Source: an uncultured Verrucomicrobiae bacterium (GTDB taxonomy: Bacteria; Verrucomicrobiota; Verrucomicrobiia; Chthoniobacterales; JAATET01). Taken from it: a stretch of DNA of 64,000 nt. Below the pieces are notes generated by a model, which saw nothing but the letters and a program-made list of their open reading frames with translations, was not told where the DNA came from and ran no database searches. This document shows positions 7,219-62,098 of the stretch, piece by piece. The stretch's first letter is position 1. Each line of letters begins with the position of its first letter. The stretch covers positions 211,170 to 275,169 of the forward strand of contig CAWDOJ010000011.1 of NCBI GenBank assembly GCA_963803825.1. Reading direction: 5' to 3'. Made by a program: the position numbers and the translations under genes.

Positions 7219-7288
7219 GGGAATGGGGTCAGGCGTCAAATCTTGAACATCTCTTCCACTCATCCTTCACACCCTTCCAAAAACACCC

Positions 7289-11269: not shown

Positions 11270-11281
11270 GCCTCAAATACG

Positions 11282-19390: not shown

Positions 19391-20637
19391 CTACCGATCG
19401 CACTCACCCATCACGAAATCCACGCTTCCCAGGATCGACACGCAATCGCTCACCAGATGTCCCGGCAGTAGTTTCGACATGATGCTCAAGTTCACGAACG
19501 ACGGTGCCCGGATCTTCAGCCGGTAAGGCACCCCGCCGCCCTTGCTGAGAATGTAAAAACCAAGTTCGCCCTTCGGATTTTCCGCCCCGAAGTAGATCTC
19601 TCCCTCCGGAGCATCGATCCCTTGCGTCGTCACGATGAAATGGTGGATCAGCTCCTCCATCTTTGTCATCACGTCGATCTTCGGCGGCAACGAACTCTTC
19701 GGGTCGAAGTAATTGATGACCCCAGTCGGAAGATCCGCCAGCACTTGTCGGATGATTTTGCAGCTTTGCCGCATCTCCTCCATCCGCACCAGATACCGGT
19801 CGTAACAATCCCCCACCTCGCCGATCGGAACATCGAAATCGTATTTCTCGTAGTCCAGATAAGGGTTCGCCCGCCGCACATCGTGCTCAACTCCGCTCCC
19901 GCGAAGATTCGGCCCCGAGATGGCATACGCAATCGCGTCTTCCTTCGAGATCACCCCGACGTCCTTCGTGCGATCAACGAAGATACGATTCCGACTGAGC
20001 AGTTTATCCAGCTCGTCCCAGACCGGTAGGAACGAGGCGATGAACGCCTCCGTCTGTGCCGGGAAGGTCTCCGGTAGATCACGCGTCTGGCCGCCCACTC
20101 GGGTGTAACTGGTCGTGAACCGCGCTCCCGTGAGTTGCTCGATCAAGTTATAGATTTTCTCCCGCTCCGTGAAAGTGAACAGGAAGATCGACGTGGCCCC
20201 CAGGTCCAACCCGTAGGCCCCGATCCCCAAGAGATGCGCCGAGATCCGGGCGAGCTCGCACGCAATAACGCGGATCGCCTTCCCCCGAGGCGGAGCTCCC
20301 AGCCCATCAACTTCTCGACCGCCAGCGCGTAAGCCACGTTGTTGGCCAGTGGAGCCAGGTAGTCCAACCGGTCCGTGTAGGGCACGAACTGGTTATACTG
20401 CATGTTCTCCGCGATCTTCTCGTCGCCCCGGTGCAGGTAGCCGCAATCCGGAGTCGCTTTCGTGATGATCTCGCCGTCCATCTCGAGGATCAACCGCAGC
20501 ACCCCGTGCGTGGATGGGTGCGATGGCCCCATGTTAAGAGTCATCGTCTCGCCCAGCAACTCACCGCCCTCCTGCGAACTTTCCAAGTTTTGGAGGCTGC
20601 GCGTCAGCGTGTCGGGTTGCTCGTAGGTCGTGGGCAT
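19391..20637 (-). CDS. nuoD: NADH-quinone oxidoreductase subunit D; -1 break near 20292
   Basis: [16 protein letters not shown]...[12 protein letters not shown]...[11 protein letters not shown], then in the next frame [32 protein letters not shown]...RAPSFVNL...DFVMGECDR. No other nuo gene flanks it. Confidence 0.85.
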
Positions 20638-20687
20638 CTTGGGATCTATTTACGCTCGAAAGTGAAATGCAGTTTGCCATCGTCCGA

Positions 20688-33577: not shown

Positions 33578-34675
33578 CTAAGCGCGCACGACGGGGAGCC
33601 GGGCGACAAACTGCATCTCGCCGCTGTTCCCCAGTTGGCAGTCGACCGTCCCCTTGGCGTATTCGGCGATCTTGCGGCACGTCGCCAGCTCAAGTCCCAA
33701 TCCATTCTGCCCCGTGGCACCAGCCGCAGGCTGTTTCGCGCCGAACAGCGCGTTGATTCGGTCCGCATTCCCACCATCGCGACCGTCGTTCACCCGGTCG
33801 ACGACCAACCGCAGCTCTTCCTCTTGCTCGACTTCGTCAATCTGCACGCTGAATCGCACGGAAATCGACCCCCGAGTCGCCATCCTGATCAACTTTCGAG
33901 CCACCATGAGAATGGATCGCTCGGGGCCCAGGTACCGCTGGCCGGTCGGACAGAAATCGTGGAATTCGAGCGTGATCGCTCGTTCGCGAGTCTGCTCGAT
34001 CAATGGCAGGAACACCACCTCGGGGAGAAATGCGCTCTGCACGCCAGCTTCCGCCAGGTGGGAGGCACTCACGTAGTCCACGATCTCCATGAGGATGTCG
34101 TGCAGCTGCCGACCAGAAGTCTGGATTTCTTTGATCCAACCCGCCCGCTCCGCGTCCAGTGGCTCGTGGGCGAGCAAGTCGGAGAACCCGAGCACGATGT
34201 TCAGCGGTGTGTTAAACTCATGGCAGAGGAGGGAAAAAAATGTGTCGTGCACACTCATCAAGCGCGCCTGCATCTCTTGCGTCCGCAGGCTTTCCTGATC
34301 GTAGTCGGCAAACCCGCGCGAGATGACCGCCTTGAGGTGGCTTCGCTCAAAGGGCTTCAGGAGGTAATTAAAAGCACCATAATTCACCGCCGCGATGGCG
34401 CTCTCCGTGCTCTCGTGCGCCGTGAGGATGATGACCTTCTGAAGCTCACGGAGTTGCTTCAAGCGCTTGAGTGTCTCGATACCCGTGAGGCCTTCCATGC
34501 AGAGATCGAGCAAGACCACCGGATAGGATTCTTCCGCTACGGCGAGGAGAGCCTCTTCACCCGACGCGACCGTCCGGACATCGTACTCGTCTCGCAAGCA
34601 CAGGCTGAGAGTCTGCCGAACCAACGGCTCGTCGTCGACGACGAGGACCTTGCGGAGTGGAGGGCCGGCAGTCAT
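33578..34675 (-). CDS. receiver-histidine kinase fusion (REC-HisKA-HATPase)
   Basis: The ATG at 34675 gives MTAGPPLRKVLVVDDEPLV...VVLLDLCMEGLTG...ILTAH...LLKP. Then H-box LLCHEFNTPLNIV and an ATPase lobe (GLGLELATCRKIAEYAKGT). Confidence 0.8.
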   Translation of the reverse strand: MTAGPPLRKVLVVDDEPLVRQTLSLCLRDEYDVRTVASGEEALLAVAEESYPVVLLDLCMEGLTGIETLKRLKQLRELQKVIILTAHESTESAIAAVNYGAFNYLLKPFERSHLKAVISRGFADYDQESLRTQEMQARLMSVHDTFFSLLCHEFNTPLNIVLGFSDLLAHEPLDAERAGWIKEIQTSGRQLHDILMEIVDYVSASHLAEAGVQSAFLPEVVFLPLIEQTRERAITLEFHDFCPTGQRYLGPERSILMVARKLIRMATRGSISVRFSVQIDEVEQEEELRLVVDRVNDGRDGGNADRINALFGAKQPAAGATGQNGLGLELATCRKIAEYAKGTVDCQLGNSGEMQFVARLPVVRA

Positions 34676-34679
34676 GGGT

Positions 34680-35882
34680 TCAGCGCTTGCGGTTCGAGGG
34701 GTTTCCAAGGCTCTTGGTGAGCAACAGGTCCTCGGGACTGGAACTATCGATCTCGATCGGCAAAAATAGCGAGAGGGAAAGTCCACCTTTTTCGTTGATC
34801 CGCGCGGTCAGCGACCCCCCGTGGTGGCGGACGATGAAGTAGCACGACACGAGAAAGACCCCGAATTCGCGCGGATTGGATCCGCGCAAATTGAAGGGAT
34901 GCAGCAGGCTTTCTGGGCAAGTGTGCTGTGCCACCGGGACAAAGTCGTCAAATTCGATGAGCGCTCCGAGCACCTCGCCATCGACCACGTTGGCCCCGAT
35001 GGTGAGGTGGACCACGCTCTCCGCTGGCAGGGAGACGATCTCTTCCGCGATCATGAAGCGGAAAAGTTTCGCCATCTGGTCCGCCGACGCGTAGATCCTG
35101 GGCGTCGCCGGGTCGGTGAGCTTTTGGATCGCGAGCTTTTTCTGGTTGCGGATCACCTCGGTCTCGACCAAAGCCCGCGTCGCGAGCTCGTCCAGATCCA
35201 ACCAACTGAGCTCATCCCTTTTGGCGGGCTGACTCACCTGCTCGAGGTCCTTCAACGTCTGAGCGACGTCGTAGAGGTGGTCGCGAGTGCTGCGAACAAA
35301 GTCGAGGGGAAGGTCCGGAGTGCCGGAGGTGTTTTTCAGCAATTGCTCGATCACGAAAGTCAACGGGCAGAGCGCGTTGTGAATGTAGTGCCCGATTTTT
35401 GCCGACACCATCCCAACGTCCAGGACTCGATCTTCGAGGATCTTCGTCCGCAATTCGTCAAATTTCGTCGCGACGAGCTCGGCCTCCGTGGCTTGCTGTT
35501 CGTGCAATTCGATCGCGTTTTCAATGACGGTCTCCAACTCGCCGAGATCCCACGGCTTCGAGACAAAAGAGTACACTGCGCCCGAATTAATCGCTTCGAC
35601 GAGCACCGATTGTTCGGTGTAGGCGGTCGTCAAGATCCGGACCACCATCGGGTACTCTTCGCGGACTCGCTTGAGCAGATCCAGACCACTGGCGTCGGGC
35701 ATGCGCTGATCCGTCACCAGCACGCCAATCTCCCCCTCGAGCGTCTCGAGCAATCGAAGCGCCTCCGCTGCCGAGCCAACCGAATGAACGGGGAAGCGAT
35801 CTTCGAAAGCTCGCGAGAAATACTTCAAGGCAATCGCCTCGTCGTCCACCACCAGCACGCCTTTGCCTAGGATTCCCTTCAT
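34680..35882 (-). CDS. receiver fused to a divergent histidine-kinase-like domain (PhcR-like architecture)
   Basis: REC of the RpfG/PhcQ type: VLVVDDEAIALKYF...LVTDQRMPDASGLDLL...RILTTAYTEQ...SKPW. Then IGHYIHNALCPL (H-box-like) and a weak ATPase lobe (EFGVFLVSCYFIVRHHGGSL). Confidence 0.7.
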   Translation of the reverse strand: MKGILGKGVLVVDDEAIALKYFSRAFEDRFPVHSVGSAAEALRLLETLEGEIGVLVTDQRMPDASGLDLLKRVREEYPMVVRILTTAYTEQSVLVEAINSGAVYSFVSKPWDLGELETVIENAIELHEQQATEAELVATKFDELRTKILEDRVLDVGMVSAKIGHYIHNALCPLTFVIEQLLKNTSGTPDLPLDFVRSTRDHLYDVAQTLKDLEQVSQPAKRDELSWLDLDELATRALVETEVIRNQKKLAIQKLTDPATPRIYASADQMAKLFRFMIAEEIVSLPAESVVHLTIGANVVDGEVLGALIEFDDFVPVAQHTCPESLLHPFNLRGSNPREFGVFLVSCYFIVRHHGGSLTARINEKGGLSLSLFLPIEIDSSSPEDLLLTKSLGNPSNRKR

Positions 35883-36970
35883 ACGGTTTTTGTGGGAGCA
35901 AGACCCGCGAGGTCCGCCCGGCTGAATTGCTCGCGCAGCGCCTCGATCACCTCATCTGCCGCGACGTCATCGCCGCCGAGGTCAAATTCAAATTTCTCCA
36001 TCTTACCGGAGATCACCAAGCGCCCGCGCACTAGGGCCAGAGCGAACAGCGATCTCAACAGATGCACCGCCGTGGCGCTAGATTCCTTCTCCGCCAAAAC
36101 CCCGCCGAGAGAGCGAGCCAGGACCGCCCGCTCGACGGTCGCTTCCTTGAGCGACACTTCCGCAATCGCGCCGTTGGTCTCGGAACGAATCGAGTTCTTT
36201 TCTAGCCCGAGACTCTCCGCCATCGCGGCAGCCAGATCGCTCACGGCACCCGCAACCCGATCTTCCCCCGAGCCGCCCGCCGTCCGCACGGACTCGATGG
36301 CGTCGAGACAGGTGATCGCATTCGCGTACTCACCGGCAACGAGGCGGTGGATGTCGAAGTCGGCCGCGCTGGTCCCCGCAGCCGTCTTTGATCCCGCTGG
36401 ATTCAATTGGCTCGGGAGCACCTCGATCATCGCCGTCACGGCTCGCCGTAGACCGGCTTGTTCATCGGTCGCCCAACCGCGCGAGGCCAGCAGCAGCCAC
36501 TTCACGCGGTCGCTACAAAGCACCCGCTGCAGCGTGCTCATCTTCACGCCGAGCAGCTCGTCACGCTCCGTCAACACGTGATGATAGTCCGCCGCACGCT
36601 GCAGCACCATGCCGAGGTCCGGGACCTCCCAGGGCTTCACGACGTATTGATAAATGTGGCCCCGGTTGACGGCCTGGATCGCGCTCTCGAGATCGGAATA
36701 CGCCGTGGTGAGAATCCGGACGACGTGCGCGTATTCGTTCCGCACGATCTCGAGCAACTCAGCACCGAGCATTTCCGGCATGCGCTGATCCGAGATGACG
36801 ATGGCGATCTTGTCGGGATCGCGACGCAGTATCTCCAGACCCTCCTGGCCGGAGGTCGCGGTGAAAATCTCGAACTTCGTCGAGAAGGCGAGGCGAAAAT
36901 ATTTCAACGCCTTTTCTTCGTCGTCGATGTAGAGGATGCCGGTTTTGCGGCTGGATGGATTTGTTAGCAT
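35879..36970 (-). CDS. receiver domain protein with uncharacterised ~230-aa C-terminal domain (PhcQ-like architecture)
   Basis: The ATG at 36970 gives MLTNPSSRKTGILYIDDEEKALKYF...VISDQRMPEMLGAELL...RILTTAYSDL...VVKPW. I recognise no motif in the C-terminal half. Confidence 0.7.
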   Translation of the reverse strand: MLTNPSSRKTGILYIDDEEKALKYFRLAFSTKFEIFTATSGQEGLEILRRDPDKIAIVISDQRMPEMLGAELLEIVRNEYAHVVRILTTAYSDLESAIQAVNRGHIYQYVVKPWEVPDLGMVLQRAADYHHVLTERDELLGVKMSTLQRVLCSDRVKWLLLASRGWATDEQAGLRRAVTAMIEVLPSQLNPAGSKTAAGTSAADFDIHRLVAGEYANAITCLDAIESVRTAGGSGEDRVAGAVSDLAAAMAESLGLEKNSIRSETNGAIAEVSLKEATVERAVLARSLGGVLAEKESSATAVHLLRSLFALALVRGRLVISGKMEKFEFDLGGDDVAADEVIEALREQFSRADLAGLAPTKTV

Positions 36971-39582
36971 GAGATTAAGGCCGACTCGGCCAGCGGGAGT
37001 TCGATGGTGAAAAGTGCCCCGCCTTCGGGCGGATTTTCCGCTCGGATCACCCCTCGGTGCGAATGGATAATTGTATGGCAGATACTTAGTCCCATTCCCA
37101 TTCCAGAACCGACGTCCCGGGTCGTGAAAAATGGATCGAAGATTCGGCTGATGATGTCTTTCGGTATACCGGGGCCGCTGTCTCGCACCCGCAGGACCGC
37201 CTGATCGCCGACCGTATCTCCGGAGATCCAAACGACGCGTTCGCCCGGCAGATTGGCTTCGCTCATCGCGCGATTCGCGTTATTGAGCAGATTAATGAAG
37301 ACGTGCATGAGCTGCGTCTTCTGGCCGCGCAGCTGCAAGCCGTCGGGGAGATCGATATCGATCCGCACACCCTCCATTTCGCCGGCGACGATCTTCATTG
37401 CGTTGCGGAGCAATTCCGCCACCGCTACGTCCGACTCCGTCCCGGCCTTCTCGGGGAAAGCAAACGTCTTGAGATCGGTCACCACGTCGCGGATGCGAGT
37501 CATCCCTTCCTCAACGTCGTCAAAAATATCCTGCATTCCTTCGGACAGCGTGTCTCGCGACATCTTTGCGACGCTCATCGCCGTGAGGGTGTAGTTGAGA
37601 GGGTTGTTGATTTCGTGCAGCAACCCAGCCGACATCGAGCCGATTGCGTTCATTTTTTCGCTCTGAATGAGCATCGTCTCCGTATCACGCAGCTTGCCGA
37701 AAGTCGCCGTGAGTTCATCGTTTTTCGTCCGGAGATCGCGTTGCATCTGCCCGGCGCGAAGGAGATTCCGCACCCGGGTCCGCACCTCGATGCTGCTGAA
37801 AGGCTTGGTGAGAAAATCGTCCGCTCCAGCTTGCAGCGCGTCGATCTTCGACTCTTCGTCCGCCCGCGCCGTGAGTAGCACGATCTTCAGATCGCGATTC
37901 GCGTCGTGGGCCCGCAGCGTCTGGCAGAGCTCCAGTCCGTCCTTGCCCGGCATCATCCAATCCAGCACGACGAGATCGGGGCGGTGCTTCGCGACGAGTT
38001 CCTCGACGTTCCCGCCGTGCTGCGTCTGGACAACGCGGTAGTCCTCCGCCAACAGCGACACGACGTAGCGCCGCATGTCGTGCTCGTCGTCGGCGACTAA
38101 CACGACCTGGGAACCCGATCCAACCTCGGGCAGCTCCACGTCCGCCGAGTCGTCGTAGGTCCAACTCCGATCCGCCGACCGAAACGCCTTCTCAAAAGGC
38201 TCCTCGAGATCGTCCAATGCGACGCGATCCATCGGCTCGGACTCGACCGCTGCCGCCCCCGTGGCCGGCAGAGTGACCCGAAATGCGCTCCCCTCGCCGA
38301 CCACGCTCTCGACGCCTAACGTGCCGCCGTGCTGCTCGACCAATTCCTGCGCGAGCGCCAAGCCGATGCCAACCCCTTGATTCTGATTCGCAGCGTTACT
38401 TTTGACTTGGTGGAATCGGTCAAACACGCGCGCAAGGTCCTCCGGCGGAATACCGACGCCGGTGTCCGCTACTTCGAACCAAAAACCGCCCGCCTCAACG
38501 GCACCTGATCGCACGGCGATCGAGCCGCCTGCGGGGGTGTACTTCATCGCGTTCGTCAGCAGGTTGAGTAGCACTTTTTCGATCCGCGCTGGGTCGAAGT
38601 CGGCCCGCAGGTCGCCCGGCCCACTCTCGATTTTGATCCTCAGCCGCTTCGATAACCCCAGGTGGCGCACGGATTCAATGATCCCGCTCAGAAACTCGTC
38701 GACGTCTACCGTCTTTCGGCGCAAGACGTCCACGCCTTGATCCATCCGCGTGAGATCGAGAAGATCGTTGATCAACTTCAGCAACCGCAGCGTATTGCGC
38801 TGAACCACGATCATCGTCCCGTGGATCGCCGGATCGAGTTGATCCGCCCGACGCAACAAATCTGCTACCGGACTCAGAATGAGAGTCAGCGGCGTCCGCA
38901 ACTCGTGGCTGACGTTGGAAAAAAACTGCGTTTTGAGGCGGTCGAGATCGCGCAGCTCCCGGTTGCGTTCGTCGAGCTGATGCCGCAGGCGGAATTCTTC
39001 GAACCTCGTTTTCGAGAGATACCACGTCATGCCGATGCAGACCGCCGTTGTTATCACCAGAAAGAACCCGCCAAATCCCAAGGCTTCGTAGCCCCCGGCG
39101 TCGGCGAAATCCGGATTCAACACGCACGCTACAACGTACGCTGCGAGCGAGACCACGCACATGATGATCGTTTCGAGAACGGTCCACGGCGAGACGATCG
39201 CCCAGCAAGTCAAGATCAAGGTGAGGCCCGCGTGGTAGGGTGAGGTCGCCCCGTCCGTGCGGAAGATCATGAACGTCATCGCGAAGTTGATCGTCAACGC
39301 CGACAGCACACCGAGAGCTTTCACGCCAGCCAACGATCCCCTCCGCCGGGCTAGCAAAAGCAGTGCGCTCAAAACGACGAGCACAAGATCGGCCCCAAAC
39401 CGGAGGGCCAAAAATTCGCCGAAGTGATCGGGATACAGGAAGTAATCGAGCACGAACCCTCCGGGCAGGGCTACCATTGCCACCCCGTTCATCACGAGAA
39501 GGCTCCGTGACAATCGACCGACGCTCTCGCGGCGGTAGGCGCCCCGAAGCTCGGCATTCGATTTTTCGACTTTGGTCGTCAT
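36964..39582 (-). CDS. membrane sensor kinase with HK-REC-HK architecture (N-terminal half PhcS-like)
   Basis: The ATG at 39582 gives MTTKVEKS. About 6 hydrophobic helices; SHELRTPLTLI plus HATPase (DTGVGI, GVGIGLALA); REC (VVLVADDEHDMR...VVLDWMMPGKDG...LLTA...KP); second H-box LLHEINNPLNY plus a second HATPase (DSGPGI, GMGMGLSI). Confidence 0.8.
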   Translation of the reverse strand: MTTKVEKSNAELRGAYRRESVGRLSRSLLVMNGVAMVALPGGFVLDYFLYPDHFGEFLALRFGADLVLVVLSALLLLARRRGSLAGVKALGVLSALTINFAMTFMIFRTDGATSPYHAGLTLILTCWAIVSPWTVLETIIMCVVSLAAYVVACVLNPDFADAGGYEALGFGGFFLVITTAVCIGMTWYLSKTRFEEFRLRHQLDERNRELRDLDRLKTQFFSNVSHELRTPLTLILSPVADLLRRADQLDPAIHGTMIVVQRNTLRLLKLINDLLDLTRMDQGVDVLRRKTVDVDEFLSGIIESVRHLGLSKRLRIKIESGPGDLRADFDPARIEKVLLNLLTNAMKYTPAGGSIAVRSGAVEAGGFWFEVADTGVGIPPEDLARVFDRFHQVKSNAANQNQGVGIGLALAQELVEQHGGTLGVESVVGEGSAFRVTLPATGAAAVESEPMDRVALDDLEEPFEKAFRSADRSWTYDDSADVELPEVGSGSQVVLVADDEHDMRRYVVSLLAEDYRVVQTQHGGNVEELVAKHRPDLVVLDWMMPGKDGLELCQTLRAHDANRDLKIVLLTARADEESKIDALQAGADDFLTKPFSSIEVRTRVRNLLRAGQMQRDLRTKNDELTATFGKLRDTETMLIQSEKMNAIGSMSAGLLHEINNPLNYTLTAMSVAKMSRDTLSEGMQDIFDDVEEGMTRIRDVVTDLKTFAFPEKAGTESDVAVAELLRNAMKIVAGEMEGVRIDIDLPDGLQLRGQKTQLMHVFINLLNNANRAMSEANLPGERVVWISGDTVGDQAVLRVRDSGPGIPKDIISRIFDPFFTTRDVGSGMGMGLSICHTIIHSHRGVIRAENPPEGGALFTIELPLAESALISC

Positions 39583-40977
39583 CCCTCTTTTCGAACCGTC
39601 AGAAATACGTTCACCCCGGTCTCGTCGGGAAAGACCTCGGAGTCTGCTCCCTTCGGCGCGAGGGAGAGGAGGTGGTTTTCGTCCCGGTAGACCAGAAACC
39701 ATTCGAGCAGATGCTCCATCAGGTAGCGTTCGGGGTTGTTCGGATGCACGTTTGTCGCGACGAGTAACCCACCGGGCCGCACCCAATTGTGATAGAGCTG
39801 GAGCAGATTGCGGCAAACGTTGTCCGGGAAATAATCGAACAAGCCCGCGCAATAAATCATGTCGTAGCTCGGCAGAAATCCTTCCTCCTCGAAGTGAATA
39901 TTCTTGAGCAGATCATCGACCGATTTCTGGATGAATTTGATCGTTGGCTTACGCCCACTTTCGTTCGTTGCCGCCTGCATCCGGCTCGTGACGTAGGCCA
40001 GCGTCTCGTCGTTGAAGTCCATGAGGTGCAGCGCACTTTCGTTGGCGAGATCGTTGTTCCGAATGAACCGCTGGATTTCTACCGCGGGTCCGCACGCGAT
40101 CGTCAGCACGGTGAAGATACGCTGCTCCTCGGTGACGCGCTCGGCCTCTTCGCCGAGCAGGCGCTCGAGGATGGTGATGCGGTTGCGATGCGCCACGCAG
40201 GCCGCCACGCTGGACGTGATGTCGTGAAAGATCCGCGCGTAAGTGTTCGTGCCGGTCGTCGCGGACTCCTGCAGCATCATGTTCACCATCTCGTAGTCAC
40301 CCGCGTAACCCAGCGGCTTGAAAAACGTCCGCCACACGAACGGCGCCGCCAGCATGTACGGGTGCATCTCGCGGCGGGCAAACGCCTTGTAGGCACTCGC
40401 GTCCTCTTCCGGCACGTCGGCAGCAGCCTTTTGAAAGAGATCCAACAGATCGCCGACCTTCCGTGTCAGCGGCGCTTCCAACGACTGGCGAAACGCCGAC
40501 GCGCGATCGGAGTCGATCTTCTGGTCGCCGACGATCGCCGTCTCGGCCTCCTCGATCCAGCGACTCGTCTCCGCGAGGAAGTTCGAGAATTTGTTCACCG
40601 CGAGCTGGTAGCCCTCGGCCAGCTCCAGGCCCTCTTCCCAATCCTGAATGAACTTATCCAGCTCCTCGCCGAGCGCTGCGCCTGGCTCGAGGTGGTCGAG
40701 CGCGTTCCACGCGTCGATCAGCGTGACCGACGCGATCACCATGAGGCCCGTCGCGACCAGACTGGTGACCACTCCGCGGCCTCGATAGATCACCCGTTCA
40801 CCCCGCATCACCGAGAAGCTCTTGGAGCACCTCGCTGAGCTGGATGAGCGAATACGGATTGTAGACCTCGAAGACGGCGATCGTCCGCGAGATGTGGACG
40901 AGGGTCCCTCGTCCGTTGAGTCCAGCCGTGTTCGTAAATGCCACGACGCTGTCGATGCCCGCTAATGCCTTTTCCAC
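39579..40977 (-). CDS. PhcB-like class I SAM-dependent methyltransferase; +1 break near 40813 joins an unlisted 59-codon ORF to the listed ORF
   Basis: Listed ORF 39579..40811 contains KPLGYAGDYEMVNMM, motif I VLTIACGPAVE, LHLMDFNDE, YDMIYCAGLFDYF and VRPGGLLVATN. An unlisted ORF, GTG 40977 to TGA 40798, reads VEKALAGIDSVVAFTNTAGLNGRGTLVHISRTIAVFEVYNPYSLIQLSEVLQELLGDAG. It has GC-rich third positions. Removing one G near 40813 fuses it in frame (...ELLVMRGERVIYRGRGVV...). Confidence 0.6.
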
Positions 40978-40995
40978 AATTCGATTTCCGAGGGT

Positions 40996-43900
40996 TTAGT
41001 TTTTCCAGATTTTTTCGGCGGCCATCGCGGCCATTTGCTGAACGTTTGGTCCCTTGAGGAGTTCCATCGCGGAAAAACTCACGCCGATGCGCTCCTTCAC
41101 TCCAAGTCCAAGCTCGAGAACCATGAGCGAATCCACGCCCATTTCGTTCAGCCTCCGATTCACCGGCACGGAGTCCTTCGCCATTCGCAAGGTCTTGGCG
41201 AGCACCTCTTGGAGGTGGTCCTCCATCACCCGCAACCGCCGCTCCGGGGAAGCTCGCGGAGTGTTCCCGCCGGAGTTCCGACGCTACTCCGCCACCGCCC
41301 GCTTCCCCGGCGCCGCGCATCTCCGCAAACCGCGAATCGCCCGCGATTCTCGGATTCGCCTCGCGCCACCGGTCCCAGTCTACGAGAAACGCGCCGACTT
41401 GCGCCGACCCCAGACCAATCGCTTTCTCCAGAGCCGCGAAAGCTTCCGCGTTCGTTAAGCCCGTGATTCCCGCTGCCACCAAGGCCGCTTCGATCCGCTT
41501 GTCCTGCGCGACGATCCCGGACTCGGCCAGCGCGCCAAGATTCAGAGACGTCGCCGGCACTCCGCGACTTCGCAACCAACGCGCGAGCCCGTCCAACGTC
41601 GCGTTTGCCGCGACGTAGTTCGTCTGACCGGCGTTTCCGATGAGCGCCGACACCGACGAATAGAAAACGAAGAAATCCAAACCCGCGTCTTCGCCCAAAG
41701 CCTCGGCTAGGTTCCAAGCCCCCGCTACTTTCGGCAGAAAGACCCGGCGAAACCGCTCTTCCGTCAGGTCTGCGATCCCCACGTCGTCGAGCACGTTGGC
41801 CCCGTGCACGATCCCGCGAAGCCGGAACGGATCGGTCCGCCCGGCCTCGATCAACCCGCGAGCCGCACCCGGGTCCGTCACGTCCGCTGCCAGCACCTCG
41901 ACCTCCGTCCCTTGCGATCTTGCGAATGCCAAAGTCTCCTCCATCCCGGTTGCCGCGGCACCCGACCGACTTGCAAGGATCACCTTCCCTGCCCCCCGCT
42001 CCGCCAACCACCGAGCGGTCGACAACCCGAATCCCGCCGTCCCTCCGGTCACGATGTAACACCCATCCCGCTGGACGACAGGCTCGCCGCCCAGCGGAGC
42101 GATGACCTCGAGTTCGCCATCGGCAAAATCGATCAGCAATTTTCCGACCTGCTCGCTCCGGGCCATCAGCCCGAACGCGTCCGCGATCTCTTTCGCCGGG
42201 AAAACTCGCGGAGCTGAGAATTCGAAATCTCCCTTCGCAAGGTGTGCAAACACGGCCTCCAGCGTCCGGCGGACGACTTCGGGGCGCTCGAGCGCCAGCT
42301 GGTCCATGTCCACCGCCGCGAAGGTGAGGTTGTGACCGAAAGCCCGCATCGGCAGCCCGTTGTCTTCGGCGATGTCCTTCTTCCCAATCTCGACGTAGCG
42401 CCCCCCGTCCGCAACGTTCCCAGCCCCGCGTGCATTGCCGGCCCGGTCTGCGCGCCGATCACCACGTCCACGCCCTGGCCTCCCGTCGCCTCGCGGATCC
42501 CAGTCGCGAAGTCCAAAGTCCGCGACGAAAACACGTGCCGCACACCCGTCTCGCGCAAGGCCAGCCGTTTCTCTTCCGAACCCGCCGTTGCAAAGATCTC
42601 CGCGCCGATCCACCGGGCGATCGCCATCGCCGCCTGCCCCACGCCCCCCGTCGCGTGGTGAATGAGCACCCGCTCGCCCCGCCGCAGCCGCCCGACTTCC
42701 AGTAGGCCGTAATACGCCGCCCCAAAGACGACCGGCACCGCCGCCGCCGCCATTCCCAGACCATCCGGGATGCGAACCACCGATTCCGCGCCGACCGTAG
42801 CGTAGGTGCGAAAGCTGTCCCGCGTCATCACCACGACCTGGTCGCCCTCGACGAACCCGGTCCCGGGTCCAACGCGCACGACCACGCCCGCGCACTCCAT
42901 CCCGATCGCCGACCCGGTCACCGTGCCCTCCAGCGCCAAGGGATGCAGTCGACCCTCGATCTTGAGCAAGTCTTTGTAATTCAGGCCCGCTCGGTGCACC
43001 CGCACCTCGACCTCGCCGTCGCCGGGGGCGATTCGCTCCGTGCTTTGGAAATGAAGCGAGTCCAGTTTGCCCTTCACCCCCACGACCAACCGCACCGCCG
43101 AGTCGACCGACTCCCACCGCCGCTCCGGTTCGACCGGCTTGTCGGCCAGCGCCGCAATCCGCCGCTCGCAGCGCACACCGTCGCGGTAGACGATCTCGCC
43201 GCTCGATCCCGCAGCGAGTTCGGCGGCGACCCACTCCGCTCCGCCGGATGCGGGCAGGCCGATCGACCGAGCCGTGACGTGGTCGAGTTCGTTCTGAGCG
43301 ACCAGCGCGACTGCGGCGAGACCACTGGTCGCCCAACCGCCCGCGTCCCGCGTCACAAAAGTCACGTCCCGCGGGTTGTCCAGAGCGGTGACCAAGCGGA
43401 CGATTTTCTGATTCAGCGCCAACACTTCCGCCACCGGATCGCCCTTCGACCGTCGCGTCCCCCACAAGACCACGAGCCGACCCCGATCCGTCTCCGCGCA
43501 ACCGAGAATCGCGCCCGGCAAAGTCGCTTGAATCTCGTGGCACAACTCGAAGTCAGAATCCTCTTCGTCCGCGAGGATCGCCACATCGCTGCCGTCGATG
43601 GAGCGCTGCACAGGCGGCAACTCGATCGGTCGCATCGCGACTTCGTGCAGCCATCTCTTCCCAGCGTCGACCAACTTGGAATCGATCAACTGCAATGCCA
43701 TCCGGTGCGCGTGCGCCAGCACCTGCCCGTCGCCATCGAGCAACCAAACGTTTGCCGTCAGCCGCGATTCCGATCGCTGCGTCAACACCCCGTAGGCGTA
43801 GACCGCAGGAGACTTCGGCCGTGCGTGATACGTGAACCGCTCGATGGAAAATGGCACGAAGAGCCCCGCCTGCCCGGAACGGTAAAGAATCGGCTGGATC

Positions 43901-46900
43901 GCCGCATCGAAGAGCGTCGGGTGCAGCGGGTGCCCGACCTCCCCCACCACCGCCGCCGCGTCCAATTCGAGCAGATACGTCCCGTCGCCCAGCCGCACCT
44001 CCGTCGTCGGTCGAAACGCCGGTCCGTAGTGCAAGCCCCGCCGCTCCAGGTCGTCGTAGAAAACGTCGACCGCCAACGATTCCCCGCAGCCGCCTCGCAG
44101 CTTTGCCAGGTCCAGCCGCTCCTCCGCCAGCTCCGCTTGCGGCGACATTCGCCCGCGACAATGCCGCGACACGCCGTCCTCCCCCTCGGTCCGGCTGGAG
44201 ATCGTGAACCGCCCGGCCTCCGGATCGTGCTCCGTGAGTAGGTATTGCAGCTTCGCCGGATCGACCACCAGCACTCGCTCGAAGCTCACGCTGTCGAGCA
44301 CGACCGACGCCGTTCCGTTCACCTCCGCGCTCAACGTCAGCGCAGCGTCCACGTAGCCCAATCCCGCAAACACCGTCTGGTTTTGCACGCCGTGGTCCAT
44401 CAGAAACGGGAAATAATTTCGATTCACCTCGACCTCCCAGCACGCCGACGGCCCGACGACCGGCGTGCTCAGATACACCGGTCCGTCCCCGGCACCGAGC
44501 CGCTCGATCTCCGAGCGCTCCGACTCCACCCAGTGCCGCTGGCGCTGCCACGGATACTGAGGCCCGGCCACGAGCAGACCCCGCTCCGGGGCGAAGACCC
44601 GCCAATCCAAAGCCTTCCCCGCGCAGTCCAGCTCCGTCGCCGTCTGCTGCAGCCGCTCGATCTCCCCTTCCTTTCGCCGGAGCGACACGAAGCCCGCGAC
44701 GCGCGCATCCCGCGCCGCCGCGCATTCCTTGATGGAATTTCCCAGCACCGGGTGGGGCCCGATTTCCAGAAATTGCGACCAACCCGCCGCAAACATCGCC
44801 GCCATCGCGTCCGCAAATCGCACCGATTGCCGCACGTTTTTCCACCAATATTCCGCCGTCCATTCCCCGCCCTCCGACGCCTCCCCGCTCACCGTGGAAT
44901 AAAGCGGCAGCCGCGCCGCTTTCGGCGCCAGCGACCGTAGCGCGTCCAGGATCTCCTCCCGGATCGGGTCCATCTGCGGGCTGTGATACGCCACTTCGAC
45001 CCGCAGAAATTTCTGAAAAATCTCCGCCGCCTCGAGTTCCGCCGCCACAGCTTCCAGCTCCGGCCGGTCCCCCGACAACGTCACCGCGCTGAAGCTATTC
45101 ACCGCCGCGACCGACACCCCCGCCCGACCCCGCAGATACGGCGCGACGTCCGCCTCCGACAACCCCACCGCTAGCATCGCCCCCCGACCCGCCGTCGTCT
45201 GCTGCAATCGGCTGCGATGGTAGCTCACCAGCACCGCTTCCTCCATCGTGTACACCCCCGCCGCCCACGCCGCCGACACCTCACCCACGCTGTGACCCAC
45301 CACCGCCGTTGGCCGGATCCCCCAGCTCTCCCACAGCCGGACGAGCCCGACCTGCAGCGCGAAATTCGCCGGCTGCGCCACCTCCGTCCGCTCCATCCGC
45401 GACTCCGCCTCCGGAGCCAACATCGCCTCGCGCACCGACCACCCGGCCAGCTTCTCAAAATATCCGTCCACCTCCGCGACCGCTTCGGCGAACACCGGCT
45501 CGTTCTCGATCAGCTCCCGGCCCATCGCCCACCACTGCGGCCCCATCCCGGTGAAGACAAACGCCAGCCCGCCGCTCCCAGCCACCCCCGTCACGACCCC
45601 CTCGTGCGTCTCGCCCGTCGACGCAGCGATGAGGCGCTCCCGCAACTCCTCCGCGCTCCCCGCCCTCACGACGCAGCGCGTCGCCAAATGACCCCGCCGA
45701 AACGCGAGGGTGTGCGCCAGATCGTCCAGCGCTCCCGTTTTTCCCCGTCCCAGCAAAAACGCCCACTTCCCTGTCAGATCTCGCAACCCCGCCTCGTTTG
45801 CCGCCGAGAAGGGGAACATCTGGACCCCCCCGCGTTCTTCCGTAGGCGGTGCGCCCGCACTCGCCAACCCCGGAGCCGACTCCAGCAGCACGTGCGCATT
45901 CGTCCCGCCGTACCCGAAGCCGTTCACCCCCACGAGCAGCGATGCGCGATCCTCGACCCCCGGCAGATCTGTGACCTCGGTCACGATGCGCAGGTTGTAA
46001 TCCTCCCAAGGGATCTTCGGATTCGGCGTCTTGAAATGCAGATTTCTCGGGATCTGCCGGTGCTTGAGCACGCCGATCGCCTTCAGCATTCCCGCCACGC
46101 CCGCCGCCGCCTCGAGGTGGCCGACGTTCGTCTTGACCGATCCGACCAGCAGCGGCTCCGTCCGCCCAACCGAGAAGTTTTCATCCAGCGCCGCCAGCTC
46201 CGCCGGATCCCCTGCCTGCGTCCCCGTCCCATGCGCCTCGACGTAGTCCACCGTCCCCGGCGCGACGCCGGCCCGCTCGTAAACCTCCCGCACCAACCCG
46301 CTCTGCGCCGATCCACTCGGCAGCGACAAGCCCTCCGTGCGCCCGTCGCTGTTCACGCCCGATCCACGGATCACCGCGTGAATCGGATCCCCGTCCGCCT
46401 GCGCCCTCGCGAGAGATTTGATGAGAAACACTCCCGCGCCCTCGCCCCGCGCGTAGCCCGCCGCCGATTCGTCGAAGGCGTGGCACTCCCCGTGGTGCGA
46501 AAGAAAATGCCCCTTACTCATCAGCACCGGGTACTCGGGCCGGGTCATCACGTTCACCCCACCCGCTAGCGCCATGTCCGCCTCACCCGCCCGCAAGCTC
46601 TGGCAGGCGTAGTGTATCGCCACCAAGGACGACGAACACGCCGTGTCCAGCGTGAGACTCGGCCCCCGCAGGTCGAAGGCGTGCGAGAGCCGATTCGACA
46701 GCACCGTCATCATCACTCCGCCCGGCGCGTGCGCGTCCATCAAGTGCTGATTGCTCGGTTGCGCTCGCAGCAGCAAATGATCCAGGCAAAATCCCCCCAC
46801 GAACACCCCGGTTCGCGACCCGGCCATCCGCTCCACCGGCAATCCCGCATCCTCGAACGCCTCCCACGTCGACTCCAGCAACAGGCGCTGCTGCGGATCC

Positions 46901-47256
46901 ATGCTCGCCGCCTCCCGAGGGGTGATCCCGAAGACCAGGGGGTCAAATTGCCGCACGTCCTGATCCAGCCAGGCGCCCTTCGGTGCGTAAGTTTTCCCGG
47001 GACGCGCCGGATCCTCGTCCCAATACCGCCGCCAATCCCAACGGTCTGACTTGATCGGCTTCAACGCGTTTCCGCCCTTGAGGAGGAAACGCCAGAACGC
47101 CGTGAGCGAATTGCCACTCGGCGGCATCCGGCAGCCGATGCCGATGATGGCAAACCGATCAGACACATCATCATCTTCAACCACGCCGAAGGGGTCTATC
47201 AGGAAACTCTTGTTTTCACCAAGCGCCGATCTGAGAAAACAGCGTCCGGGCAGCAA
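40996..47256 (-). CDS. single-module fully reducing type I polyketide/fatty-acid synthase, KS-AT-DH-(psiKR)-ER-KR-ACP; breaks near 42412 and 41245-41275
   Basis: KS: DTACSSSL (Cys codon 46636-46638), EAHGTGT, NVGH. AT: GHSVGE (Ser codon 45289-45291). DH: LMDHGVQNQTVFAG (His codon 44392-44394). ER: LIHHATGGVGQAA. KR, in the frame of ORF 40808..43543: VTGGTAGFGL...YSSVSALIGNAGQTNYVAAN. ACP, ORF 40996..41235: GVDSLM (Ser codon 41128-41130). The ORF ends 27 codons after the ACP helix region, with no TE domain. Confidence 0.85.
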
Positions 47257-56444: not shown

Positions 56445-56559
56445 CGACTGGCAGTTCGTCCCATGCAGCCCGGCGAAATCAGTCGTCTATCCTCACTCCA
56501 CGTTCCCCAATCCGCATTCACGAAGTCCACGGACTTGCGTAGGCGCGTAGTATCTTCCC

Positions 56560-59500
56560 GTGCCAAAAACCATCCGTATCCGCGGCGCCCGTCAGAATAA
56601 TCTACAGGGCATCGATCTCGACCTTCCGCTCGGTCAATTCATCGTCCTCACCGGACCCAGCGGCAGTGGCAAGAGCTCCCTCGCCTTCGACACCATCTAC
56701 GCCGAAGGCCAGCGCCGCTACGTCGAGACCTTCAGCCCCTACACGAGGCAATTCCTCGACCGGATGGACAAGCCGCAGGCCGATTCCATCGAAGGCATCC
56801 CGCCCGCCATCGCCATCGAGCAAGCCAACCACGTCAAATCGACCCGCTCGACCGTCGGCACGATCACCGAGATCAACGATTACCTGAAACTTTTCTTCGC
56901 CCGCGCGTCCAAGGCCCAATGTCCCGATTGCGCCCGCCCAGTCTCCCCCGAGACTCCGCAATCGATCGCGCGCGCCGTCGCCAAAGATTTTGCCGACCAG
57001 ACGATCCTGATCACCTTCCCCGTCCCGCTCGGCGAAGCCAAGTCGAGTTCCGCCAGGGACTTCTTCGAATTTCTCAATTCCCAAGGCTACCTCCGCGTCT
57101 TCCTCAACGGCGAAACGCACCGCACCGACGAACCCCCATCGAAGAAAAAGCTCCCCCCCATCGTCGACGTCATCCAGGACCGCATCGAAGTCAAAAAGGC
57201 CAACCAGACCCGCCTCTCCGAAGCCATCGAGACCGCCCTGCGCTTCGGAAAAAACCGCCTCACCGTATTTTCTACCACCCCAGAGTCACCCCTAACCACC
57301 CACCCGTATTCATCCACCTGGCACTGCGCCCACTGCGACCTCGACATCCGTCCGCCATCCCCGGGCCTCTTCACCTTCAATAACCCGCTCGGTGCCTGCC
57401 CCGCCTGCCGCGGCTTTGGTCGGGTGATCGGGATCGATCTCAACCGCGTGATGCCCGACCGGTCCCTCAGCCTCGCGCAGGGCGTCATCAAGCCCTTCCA
57501 GACCGGCCATTCCAAAGAATGTCAGGCCGACTTGATTCGCCACGCGTCGCGCAACGACATCGACCTGCACATTCCCTTCGAAGATCTCCCGGAATCGGAC
57601 CAACGCTGGGTGATCGAGGGTGAAGGCGACGCCGACACGACCGCTGACGAGATCTGGGACTCTGGCGCTTGGTACGGGATCAACGGGTTCTTCAAGTGGA
57701 TGGAATCCAAGGCCTACAAGATGCACATCCGCGTCTTCCTGGCTCGCTACCGCAGCTACCAACCTTGCCCGACCTGCGAAGGCGGACGCTTCCAGCCGGA
57801 GACGCTCAATTTCCGTCTCCACCCCACGGGCCTGACCCTCCCGGAAGTCGCCCGCACGTCCGTCGACAAGCTCATCCCGCTGTTTCGAGACGTCACCATG
57901 CCCCCGGGCGATCCTAGCTCGGAAGCTCCTCCGCACCCAGATCTCGTCCCGCCTGGGGTACCTAGCGGAAGTCGGCCTCGGCTACCTTTCCCTCGACCGC
58001 CCGACCAAGTCCCTCTCCGGCGGCGAGATCGAGCGCGTCAATCTCACGACTTGCCTCGGCGCGTCCCTCGTCAACGCCCTCTTCGTCATGGACGAACCCA
58101 GCGTCGGCCTTCACCCGCGCGACACGGGGCGATTGGTCAAGATCATCCACGCCCTCCGCGACAAAGGCAACACGCTGCTCGTCGTCGAGCACGAGGAATC
58201 CATCATCCGTGCCGCCGACCACCTCGTCGACATCGGTCCGGGCCGCGGCAAGGAAGGCGGCAAGCTTGCCTACTCCGGCCCCCTCATCGACATCTCCGAC
58301 CCATCGTTCGACACGTCGACGTCCCTGACCGCCGAATATCTGCAGGGCAAGAAATTCATCCCGGTCCCCGAAGACCGCCGCGAACCCCTCGAGTTTATCG
58401 AGATCGAGGGCATCACCCACCACAACATCAAGAATCTCGATGTCCGTCTTCCGCTCGGCGTTTTTTGTTGCGTCACCGGCGTTTCCGGTAGCGGTAAGTC
58501 CACCCTCATCCACGACGTTTTGTATCGCCAGATCACCGGCGAAGGCGTCGACGATCAGGAGCAGGCCGGACAATGCAAGGGAATCGACGGGGCGGAAGAC
58601 ATCGACGAGATCGTCATGGTCGACCAGTCGCCATTGGCCCGCAGCCCGCGCTCGACGCCCGCCGTCTACCTCGGCGCGTTCGACGCGATCCGCGCGCTCT
58701 TTGGCGGCACTGAGGAAGCCATCCAAGCCGGATTCTCCCCGTCCACTTTCTCGTTTAATTCCGGGAACGGTCGCTGCGAGCGCTGTGCCGGTCTCGGCTT
58801 CGAGAAAGTCGAGATGCAGTTCCTCTCCGACCTCTTCCTCCGCTGCCCCGAGTGCGACGGCAAACGCTACCAACCCCAGGTCCTCAAGATTCACGTCGGC
58901 GGGAAGACGATCATCGAGATTCTGGAAATGACCGTGAAAGAGGCCCTCGCCTTCTTTGCGGAACTCCCCGCCGGCGGCAAGCGCGCTACCCGTGGGCGCG
59001 GCGGCTACGTCGCCCCGCACTCCGCGATCATCGACCCGCTTCAGCTGATGGCGGACGTCGGACTTGACTACCTCTGCCTCGGCCAGCCGCTCAACGTGCT
59101 CTCCGGCGGCGAATCCCAGCGGCTGAAGCTAGTGAAGCACCTCGTCGAGCAACGCGACGAGAGCGCTCTCCTCATCTTTGACGAACCCACCACCGGCCTC
59201 CACATCGACGACGTCGCGGGTCTCCTCGGGGTCTTCCAGCGCCTTGTCGAGGAAGGCAACAGCTTGCTCGTCATCGAGCACAACCTCGACGTGATCAAAT
59301 GCGCTGATTGGGTCGTCGACCTCGGCCCCGAAGGCGGCGACGAAGGCGGTCAACTCGTCGCCGAAGGCACTCCCGAGCAAGTCGCCGAAGTCGAGGCCAG
59401 CCACACCGGACGCTTCCTGAAAGAAATCTTCTCCGGAACGTGCGCCCCGCTTCCAGCCGGCAGCCAACCCAACCGCCCAGCGCAAACTCCCGCCTCCAAC

Positions 59501-62098
59501 TGCATCTCCGTCCGCGGCGCCCGCGAACACAACCTCAAGGACATCTCCATCGACATCCCGCGCGACAAGCTCGTCGTTGTCACCGGCATGTCCGGCTCCG
59601 GGAAGTCGACCCTCGCATTCGACATTCTCTTTGCGGAAGGCCAGCGCCGCTTCCTCGACAGCATGTCGCCCTACGCGCGGCAGTTTGTCGACCAGCTCGA
59701 GAAGCCCGAAGTCGACTCCATCGAAGGCCTCCCACCCTCCGTCGCCATCGAGCAGCGCGTCACCCGTGGCGGCGGCAAGTCCACCGTCGCCACCGTCACC
59801 GAGACCTACCATTTCCTCCGCCTCCTCTTCGCGAAGGTCGGCCTCCAGTATTGCCCCGACTGTCACGTCCCCGTCGCCAACCAGACTCTCAGCGCCATCA
59901 CCACGCAGGTCCGCGAGATGGCGGGCAACGACAATCTGAAGATCTTTGCGCCGCTCGTGAAAGCTCGCAAAGGCTTCCACACCGACGTCGCCAAATGGGC
60001 CGAGAAACAGGGCTTCGCCACCCTCCTCGTCGACGGAAAGATGACCGCAGTCGACGGCTTCGAGAAGCTCGAGCGCTTCAAAGAACACACCATCGACGTC
60101 CTCGTCGGCGAAGTCCCCACCGGCGACGAGAAGAAGGCCGAAGAACTTGTCCGCCGCGCCCTCAAGATCGGCAAAGGCACCGCCCGCATCCTCGATCAAA
60201 GGAAGAAATTCCACCTCCTCAGCACGGAGATGAATTGCCCGAGCTGCTCCCGCTCCTTCGAGCCACTCGATCCCCGCCAATTTTCCTTCAACAGCCCGCA
60301 CGGCTGGTGCGAATTCTGCCGAGGCTTCGGCGAGATCTGGAAATCCAACGTCACCGACAGCAAAGACTTCGATAGCCAACTCGAAGCCGACCTCGCCGAA
60401 GAGCGTTCGTTCGAGCGCGCCGAGTCCGACGAGTCCCGGCCCTGCCCGGAATGCGAAGGCGCGCGCATCAATGACGTCGCCCGCTCGGTCCACGTCGGCA
60501 AGCACACCGTCGCCGATTTTATCAAGGCCCCCGCCGAGGACGCCCTCGTCCTCATCGCGGGCCTCAAGTTCGGCAAGAACGACGGCCGCATCGCCAAGGA
60601 CATCCTCGCCGAGATCTCCCAACGGCTCGAGTTCCTCACCATCGTTGGGCTCGACTACCTGAGCTTGGATCGTAGCGCGAAGACGCTGTCCGGTGGTGAA
60701 TCTCAGCGCATCCGTCTGGCCGCCCAGCTCGGCAGCAACCTTCGTGGCGTCCTCTACGTCCTCGACGAACCCACGATCGGCCTCCACCCCCGCGATAATC
60801 ACAAGCTCCTCGAAGCTCTCGAGCGCCTCTCGGGTAACGGAAATTCCCTCGTCATCGTCGAGCATGACGAGGACACCATGCGCCGCGCCGACCACATCAT
60901 CGACCTTGGTCCCCGCGCCGGTCGCAACGGCGGCCAAGTCATCACCGCCGGCAACATCGATGAGATCATGGCCTGTGCCGACTCGCTGACCGGGCAATTT
61001 CTCCGCGACCCGATCAAGCATCCCATGGTCGGCCCCCGCCGCCCGCTCGAAACGGTCAAAGATTGGATCACCGTCAAAGGAGCCTGCAAAAACAACCTCA
61101 AGGAGATCGACGTCCGCATCCCACTGCACCGCCTCACCGTCGTCTCCGGCATCTCCGGATCCGGGAAATCCACGCTCGTCCGCGGTGTCCTCGTCCCCGC
61201 CGTCCGAGCTGAACTCACCCGTGGCAAACGCAAGCTCCGGTCCGAGGATTGGGACAGCGTGCACGGAGTGGATAAGATCGGTGCCGTCCTCGAAGTCGAC
61301 CAGTCGCCCATCGGAAAGACCTCCCGCTCCACCCCCGCGACCTACATCAAGGTCCTCGACGAGATTCGCAAGGTCTACGCTCAGCTCCCCGACGCCCGGA
61401 TGCGCGGCTACACGGCCTCGCGTTTCTCTTTCAACAACGAAGGCGGCCGCTGCGAAAATTGCCAGGGCCAAGGCGTCATCAAGCTGGAGATGACCTTTCT
61501 CCCCACGACCTACATGCCCTGCGAAGAATGCCACGGCAAACGCTACAACGCCCAGACCCTCGAAGTCCTCTTCGACGGCAAAAGTATCGGCGACGTCATG
61601 GAGATGACCGTCGACCAAGCCGCCGAATTCTTCGCCAGCATCCCGAAGATCAAGCGCTCTCTCGATCTCCTCGTCGAAACTGGTCTTGGCTACCTTCAAC
61701 TTGGCCAAGCTAGCCCCACCCTCTCCGGCGGAGAGGCGCAGCGAATCAAACTCGTCACCCAGCTCGCCCGACGAGCCACCCCCAAGGCCGAAGCCCTCCG
61801 CACCACGCGCATGGGCAAAAGCACGCTCTACGTCCTGGAGGAACCCACCATCGGCCTGCATACCGCCGACGTCGCCAACTTGATCTCGGTCCTTCACCGG
61901 TTAGTCGAAGAAGGCGGCACGGTCGTCGTCATCGAGCACCACATGGACGTCGTCGCCGAGGCCGACTACCTCGTCGACGTCGGACCGGAAGCCGGGGTGA
62001 AAGGCGGCGAAATCCTCGCGGCCGGCACCCCCGAGCAGGTCGCGACAGCCAAACGATCCCGCACGGCTCCGTTCCTTAAGGAAGCTTTGGATAGGTGA
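56560..62098 (+). CDS. uvrA: tandem double UvrA-like ABC ATPase (two complete UvrA units in one reading frame); +1 break at 57913
   Basis: Four Walker A motifs: [66 protein letters not shown]. Four signatures: [36 protein letters not shown]. CxxC zinc modules occur in both units. Unit 2 starts near 59500 ([16 protein letters not shown]). ORFs 56560..58491 and 58088..62098 join at PPGD|[17 protein letters not shown]. Confidence 0.85.

Follow-up and report, generated by a model that had tools for sequence, protein, structure and literature searches.

In Ralstonia, the S-adenosylmethionine (SAM)-dependent methyltransferase PhcB makes the quorum-sensing signals methyl 3-hydroxymyristate and methyl 3-hydroxypalmitate (PMC8578825, PMC11960443). 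In the phc locus, with the order phcBSRQ, its gene is followed by those for the sensor kinase PhcS and for the regulators PhcR and PhcQ. Here we consider a gene of the same family in a 64-kb stretch of DNA with 63% GC, part of contig CAWDOJ010000011.1 of an uncultured Verrucomicrobiae bacterium, which we refer to as the window and to whose positions all coordinates belong. As assembled, this gene is divided between an open reading frame (ORF) of 59 codons, here called ORF59, and a listed methyltransferase (MT) ORF that overlaps it in another frame. Comparison with homologs indicates that the two are one gene for a 465-residue, PhcB-type SAM-dependent MT, interrupted by a single surplus base.

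Ralstonia PhcB and the MT of the window are homologous over their full length and nearly equal in size, with an ORF of 464 codons in the former and 465 residues in the latter. In both proteins Pfam sees a generic MT domain alone, at the same position, and leaves residues 1-260 unannotated; the order of the downstream genes is also shared. There are also differences. The window belongs to another phylum, its MT having its nearest relatives in the Chthoniobacterales/Terrimicrobiaceae group of the Verrucomicrobiota, and directly upstream it has a gene for a fully reducing type I polyketide synthase (PKS) of ~2090 aa, which is absent from all the Ralstonia, Cupriavidus and Planctomycetota loci examined. 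Its kinase has 872 residues, in which a PhcS-like protein, a receiver and a second kinase are fused, in contrast to the 442 residues of Ralstonia PhcS. The MT gene, unlike Ralstonia phcB, is frameshifted in the assembly.

The split methyltransferase gene and its homologs

ORF59 runs on the minus strand from GTG 40977 to the TGA at 40798-40800, reads VEKALAGIDSVVAFTNTAGLNGRGTLVHISRTIAVFEVYNPYSLIQLSEVLQELLGDAG, and starts 18 nt past the stop of an acyl carrier protein (ACP) ORF. Its overlap with the listed MT ORF amounts to 14 nt if the latter starts at GTG 40811, and to 11 nt if it starts at ATG 40808. A first-pass annotation of the window had described a 59-aa ORF from GTG 40977 to TGA 40798 with about 75% GC at third codon positions, and our count of 74.6% agrees with this; GC at codon positions 1, 2 and 3 is 64/39/75% in ORF59 and 63/38/80% in the MT ORF, whereas the DNA of ORF59 translated in the MT frame gives 37/80/61% and a nonsense peptide rich in Arg and Ser. 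ORF59 is not a chance feature: in tblastn its residues 1-54 align with the beginning of an intact orthologue at 87% identity (E = 2e-25). Its last five codons (…LGDAG) and the TGA are an out-of-frame read-through beyond the surplus base. Removal of one base fuses ORF59 and the MT ORF into the 465-aa product, of which the MT ORF accounts for residues 56-465. The database entry P0002, which begins at ATG 40808 and has 409 aa, is 100% identical to this fused protein and covers 88% of it.

The fused 465-aa sequence was searched against a collection of 5.8 billion proteins, and 103 of the 120 best matches examined are 464-471 aa long and cover at least 99% of the query. These homologs thus run continuously through the 59-aa segment, as expected from the proposal of the first-pass annotation that ORF59 is the missing N-terminus of the MT. 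A scan of one genome per species gave 583 relatives, and all of the best 80 loci examined, from Verrucomicrobiota, Planctomycetota, Gammaproteobacteria and Betaproteobacteria including Ralstonia and Cupriavidus, align from query residue 10 or earlier rather than from the MMRGERV position; every Ralstonia and Cupriavidus locus aligns from residue 8. The homologs open with MEK/VEKxLxGIDS at the position of the ORF59 start, and invariant residues flank the junction both before it (G24, T25, L26, R31, E37, Y39, N40, P41, Q46, S48 and E49) and after it (R58, G59, Y64, V69, V70, T76 and G77). The phcB ORF of Ralstonia syzygii has 464 codons, in keeping with the size of about 465 aa that the first-pass annotation had given for PhcB-type enzymes. 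Its product shares 44% identity with the fused protein (residues 7-462 against 8-462; E = 6e-132), and the alignment crosses the junction ungapped. Some members of the family carry the JGI name 'extracellular factor (EF) 3-hydroxypalmitic acid methyl ester biosynthesis protein'.

The closest described proteins are intact orthologues within the Verrucomicrobiota. P0001 (465 aa, MFD03250.bin.2.59) is 91% identical, and P0009 and P0011, both named 'class I SAM-dependent methyltransferase' at NCBI and assigned to Terrimicrobiaceae and to a Verrucomicrobia bacterium, are 77-78% identical. They are collinear with the fused protein over all 465 residues, have the same start position (some with GTG) and lie in the same cluster of PKS, MT, kinase and three regulators. 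Their reading frame is uninterrupted, whereas the window has its extra base. The same holds more widely: a single uninterrupted MT gene is present in 19 of 21 related clusters, and in the other two the MT is intact in one and broken elsewhere, at a different codon, in the other. Among more than 200 orthologues examined we saw none with a separate protein of about 59 aa and an MT starting at MRGERV. These alignments show that ORF59 and the listed MT ORF are one gene, whose product, once the frame is restored, is a full-length member of the PhcB family.

The position of the surplus base can be read from the closest relative. P0001 (locus L001; 91% amino-acid identity) has CAGGAA-ATC-TCGGTGATG opposite CAAGAG-CTTC-TCGGTGATG in the window, and the DNA alignment of the two contains a single 1-nt gap, at CTTC/ATC, within well-aligned neighbouring sequence; tblastn switches from frame -2 to frame -3 at 40816/40817. 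Together, the single gap and the frame switch therefore place the surplus base within 40815-40818, and the reconstructed gene is interrupted after codon 54. The first-pass annotation had suggested deleting a G near 40813, which leads to the same length of 465 aa, but the base sits 2-5 nt away, in CTTC. The junction also changes: in place of the earlier ...ELLVMRGERV, the L001 alignment gives ...QELSVMRGERV, identical to that of homolog P0009, and protein alignments that include Ralstonia PhcB pass through it without a gap.

Predicted architecture of the restored protein

We modelled the intact orthologue with 91% identity in AlphaFold and obtained a predicted local distance difference test score (pLDDT) of 83.7 for the full length and 83.4 for residues 1-98 alone. 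The models contain three parts: a six-strand β-barrel at residues ~10-86 (strands 10-16, 21-29, 33-38, 50-58, 61-75 and 80-86), a helical domain at ~100-283, and a class I Rossmann MT domain at ~288-462. With Foldseek, the model of the last of these retrieves class I methyltransferases; Pfam places Methyltransf_25 at residues 290-403, and C295-G296-P297-A298, in the glycine-rich SAM motif, is invariant in the family alignment. Codon 54, after which the frame is lost, lies midway along strand 50-58, the fourth of the six strands in the barrel. A stand-alone 59-aa product, consisting of half a barrel and five unrelated residues, is implausible in the light of this model because the break lies inside a barrel strand.

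For the barrel, each of the top 26 Foldseek matches in the PDB is a PilZ domain or a protein that contains one (BcsA, MrkH, VCA0042, YcgR, Alg44), with TM scores of 0.65-0.72 and root-mean-square deviations of 2.6-3.4 Å for the best PilZ structures. PilZ domains, the cyclic di-GMP (c-di-GMP) receptor barrels of BcsA, YcgR, MrkH and Alg44, thus share their fold with residues ~10-86 of the model, but the sequence identity is only ~12%. The RxxxR motif is absent from the first 25 residues in all 48 family members scanned, the position of the D/NxSxxG motif of PilZ reads HIS/TRS/TxA in the PhcB-family consensus, and the protein has no match to the Pfam PilZ profile (PF07238) at E <= 0.01. Because the PilZ binding motifs are missing, c-di-GMP binding is not expected, and the likeness seen in the model is a resemblance of fold only.

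A PilZ-like barrel without the c-di-GMP motifs, which in the window occupies 40700-40977 (residues 1 to ~95), is common to the whole PhcB family, including Ralstonia PhcB (L051:7703-9094). Pfam and NCBIfam both lack a profile of PhcB and of its residues 1-260, and our literature search found no report of a PilZ-like domain in PhcB, nor of PhcB linked to a PKS.

Frameshifts in the window and the origin of the surplus base

The MT gene is not the only one in the window whose frame is broken. We called frameshifts by homology, using tblastn, partial coverage of Pfam profiles and PDB alignments, so that the total is a lower bound; frame segmentation by codon usage in sliding windows was tried as a general detector and dropped as too noisy, especially on the plus strand. 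At least eight further frameshifts supported by homology were found, in the genes for the PKS (two), the complex I subunit NuoD, a photolyase (four) and a UvrA-like protein, which with that of the MT makes at least nine in 64 kb (Table 1). The majority of them sit at short G/C runs. The frames of the PKS, kinase and regulator genes were tested by tblastn with the proteins of an intact relative assembled from short reads (L002); the PKS was matched in three frames, the kinase and each of the three regulators in a single high-scoring segment pair. With one base inserted, NuoD has 415 aa and aligns to the NuoCD chain of PDB 7q5y with no gap at the repaired junction. Within ~450 nt of the photolyase gene (~10470-10900) the frame shifts four times, mostly at G runs, and three of these changes are hidden, the wrong frame staying open. 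In the UvrA-like gene, a shift at GAAGCTC (57922) was rejected, as PDB alignments show the downstream frame to be already correct from ...RAILARKLL.

The two closest relatives of the window, L001 and L086, both come from ENA assembly ERZ25039505, and one of them is deposited at NCBI as MFD03250.bin.2.59, with contig names in the style of Flye. Judging by the name, the 'MFD' prefix of this bin points to the Microflora Danica study, although sample MFD03250 is unnamed in its main text (PMC12313526). The long-read paper on metagenome-assembled genomes (MAGs) from that study describes Nanopore-only metagenome assemblies made with Flye and one round of Medaka polishing (PMC12313526), and indels at homopolymers and methylated motifs are known residual errors of Nanopore consensus sequences (PMC6591954, PMC9262707). 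L001 and L086 also have frameshifts in the cluster, at positions that all differ from those in the window and mostly in short base runs. One of the two keeps its MT intact, with breaks in the PKS and kinase genes; the MT gene of L086 is broken near codon 170 and its call is shortened to 303 aa. The 19 other assemblies of the cluster have zero frameshifts. In its many single-base frameshifts in conserved genes, mostly at short G/C runs, the window resembles a Nanopore-only consensus. It differs in that the MT site, CTTCTC, has no long homopolymer and in that three of the shifts are found at GAGCT(T)C.

Each of these three shifts, out of at least nine, coincides with or adjoins a copy of the palindrome GAGCT(T)C, located at 40815-40821 in the MT gene, at 41249-41255 in the PKS gene and at 20293-20298 in nuoD. 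With 38 sites of this motif in 64 kb, a rough post-hoc estimate puts the probability of such an overlap by chance at ~1e-4. GAGCTC occurs 18 times in the window, where 26.6 +/- 5.9 are expected, and GAGCTTC is mildly enriched (20 against 11.4 expected), 2 of 100 shuffles reaching 20. Systematic miscalling of GAGCTC was set aside as the cause, since 35 of the 38 sites lie within intact ORFs and the frameshifts of the sister genomes lie away from GAGCT(T)C, and we treat the overlap as an association rather than a cause. A methylated motif specific to this genome that disturbs Nanopore basecalling is a plausible cause.

How the two halves of the MT gene have evolved bears on whether the break exists in the cell. 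Once the surplus base is deleted, the 1398 nt of the gene stay in register with L001 at every codon, with zero other indels or stops, and the ratio of nonsynonymous to synonymous substitution rates (dN/dS) amounts to 0.06 for the whole gene and to 0.075 for its ORF59 portion. Strong purifying selection has acted on both halves of the gene. Given the other frameshifts, which include housekeeping genes, the breaks of the sister genomes at other places and the low dN/dS, we consider it highly likely that the surplus base is an insertion error of a long-read consensus of the Nanopore type, and the PhcB-like gene would probably be intact in the cell. Several observations pull the other way. The sequencing platform of the window is deduced from its relatives alone, and the surplus base, in CTTCTC with no long homopolymer, is not in a classic context for Nanopore errors. 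Moreover, four other MAGs with the MFD03250 prefix have no frameshift in the cluster; the frameshift rate would therefore be specific to this genome, which low coverage or a real decay of genes in the lineage could explain.

Some of the same observations could be read in favour of a genuine and very recent frameshift in the population, either a pseudogene at an early stage or a variant, of a minority or of one strain, that entered the consensus, in which case the cell would make no full-length PhcB-type enzyme but at most a truncated protein from GTG 40811 or ATG 40808. The site has no long homopolymer; the clusters of the window, L001 and L086 are all broken somewhere while those of more distant relatives are not, which could reflect relaxed selection; and the public gene call P0002 takes the ORF as truncated. 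We nevertheless regard such a mutation as unlikely. Selection is strong in the parts before and after the break and the 1398 nt show no second lesion, NuoD, the UvrA-like protein and the photolyase are hit in the same 64 kb at a density that is improbable for a free-living bacterium and typical of a noisy consensus, and the sister genomes are broken at other sites, again at short base runs.

Two further explanations would have the split exist in nature, and even jointly they deserve very little weight. ORF59 could be a real small protein translationally coupled to a shorter MT, as the first-pass annotation had proposed for its alternative; it has its own GTG start, and overlaps of 14 and 11 nt with the GTG and ATG of the MT ORF fit the geometry of coupling. 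The arrangement is seen in no homolog, however, and the split cuts strand 4 of the six-strand barrel into two half-domains that would not be autonomous, while LGDAG has no counterpart in any homolog and the out-of-frame continuation matches all of them. This makes a coupled small protein very improbable. A programmed +1 ribosomal frameshift that restores the full-length enzyme is more improbable still: the conserved reading would return if one base were skipped at CUU-C-UCG, but the site is not conserved, every orthologue examined being in frame at this position, CUU-CUC-GGU offers no in-frame stop, rare codon or known +1 signal (the zero-frame stop lies five codons downstream), and the contig has interruptions of this kind in many unrelated genes.

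Outside the genes discussed so far, the window carries a fragment of an IS200-type Y1 transposase (6619-7235, minus strand) that matches only positions 30-88 of a 121-position profile. An ORF next to it in a different frame may mean that the transposase gene, too, is frameshifted or degraded. Scans of the window for Rfam families and for tRNAs gave no matches.

Table 1. Coordinates of the methyltransferase gene, its cluster and the frameshifts, in the window unless a contig of a relative is named.
Feature	Position	Strand	Remarks
Frameshift site	40815..40818	-	One surplus base in CAAGAG-CTTC-TCGGTGATG; inside GAGCTTC heptamer 40815-40821
ORF59	40798..40977	-	Codons 1-54 encode the genuine N-terminus of the PhcB-type MT; family start position, GTG start
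Listed MT ORF	39579..40811	-	410 codons from GTG 40811; second half of barrel, helical domain and class I SAM MT domain
Reconstructed phcB-like gene	39579..40977	-	1399 nt as assembled; 1398 nt (465 codons and stop) minus one base
PKS shift 1	~42395-42405	-	Missing base at G run
PKS shift 2	~41245-41262	-	Extra base; stretch contains GAGCTTC 41249-41255
nuoD (complex I 49-kDa subunit)	19394-20649, junction 20290-20298	-	One base missing directly after GAGCTC
Photolyase gene	9874-11272	-	Shifts near 10885-10900, ~10690, ~10585 and ~10480
Double-length UvrA-like gene	56551-62098, junction ~57899-57910	+	C5/G3 run CCCCCGGG; ~1848 aa when repaired, two UvrA units in tandem
Type I PKS (KS-AT-DH-ER-KR-ACP)	40996..47256	-	Single ORF of ~2090 aa in intact relatives; three frames here
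Hybrid histidine kinase, 872 aa	36964..39582	-	Intact; single high-scoring segment pair in tblastn; ATG overlaps MT stop (ATGA)
Three response-regulator (RR) genes	33578..36970	-	Intact; RR1 PhcQ-like; RR2; third REC-HisKA, PhcR-like
L001 (ERZ25039505 contig_15741)	~4277, 5215-5285, 5666-5676, 12109		Four frameshifts in same cluster
L086 (contig_4168)	6013-6056, 8719-8735		Two frameshifts in same cluster

A Phc-like cluster with a polyketide synthase

The genes around the reconstructed MT form a cluster that combines a PKS with Phc-like components. The 79-aa 'ACP' ORF upstream of ORF59 is the C-terminus of the PKS. The kinase matches Ralstonia PhcS best with its C-terminal core, at 38% identity over the kinase core; identity is 27% when all of PhcS, membrane region included, is compared. 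It resembles a PhcS-like protein, with a MASE8-like membrane region and a core, fused to a receiver and a second PhcS-like core, and both cores match PhcS. Of the regulators, RR1 is 42% identical to PhcQ over the receiver domain and the REC-HisKA protein is 33% identical to PhcR over 159 aa.

Of the 86 loci examined whose downstream sequence extends far enough, nearly all keep the order of MT, kinase and regulator. The full cluster, PKS - MT - kinase - RR - RR - REC-HisKA (33578-47256 in the window; L001-L028), is conserved across MAGs of Chthoniobacterales, Opitutales and Puniceicoccaceae. A PKS of ~2090 aa upstream of the MT is found in Verrucomicrobiota loci only, plus a partial case in one Methylococcales MAG; the loci of Planctomycetota and Proteobacteria retain MT, kinase and RR, and the PKS is missing from them. 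This conservation of gene order suggests a Phc-type signalling in the Verrucomicrobiota that is fed by a PKS.

From homology and gene order, the PhcB-like MT would make a fatty-acyl methyl-ester signal, and the adjacent two-component proteins would sense it. Because a PKS sits upstream, the acyl substrate may differ from that of Ralstonia, which is derived from fatty-acid synthesis. As a tentative proposal, which we hold to be possible rather than probable in its entirety, the gene would be intact in the organism and encode the enzyme that makes the signal for a hitherto uncharacterised quorum-sensing circuit of the Phc type, conserved among soil and freshwater Verrucomicrobiota (Chthoniobacterales, Opitutales, Puniceicoccaceae). 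A dedicated, fully reducing PKS would supply the acyl chain in place of fatty-acid synthesis, the PhcB-like MT would methylate it, and the PhcS-like kinase and the PhcQ- and PhcR-like regulators would sense the product; the barrel could serve as a domain for docking of the substrate or of the carrier protein, or as a regulatory domain. This proposal is weakened by the fact that the function of the MT is assigned by homology, our literature search having found no characterised PhcB-type enzyme or system from Verrucomicrobiota.

For the annotation of this genome, the split MT gene is most likely an ordinary artefact in a gene of a known kind and not a new small gene. The public call of 409 aa is truncated because the assembly is frameshifted, and it would be a mistake to list ORF59 as a small gene. 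Several frameshifts of the window escape checks for overlapping ORFs, because wrong frames stay open in DNA of 63% GC, and such checks underestimate the indel load; conclusions drawn from the window at the level of genes require frameshift correction that takes homology into account, or polishing at the level of reads. For the family, the comparison indicates that modules of a PhcB-type synthase and a PhcS-type sensor are widespread beyond Ralstonia and that in Verrucomicrobiota they are tied to a PKS. The cluster of PKS and Phc-like genes, together with the unannotated N-terminal barrel, may outweigh the split gene in interest; both would provide testable leads on how cells signal to one another in a phylum that is poorly cultured.

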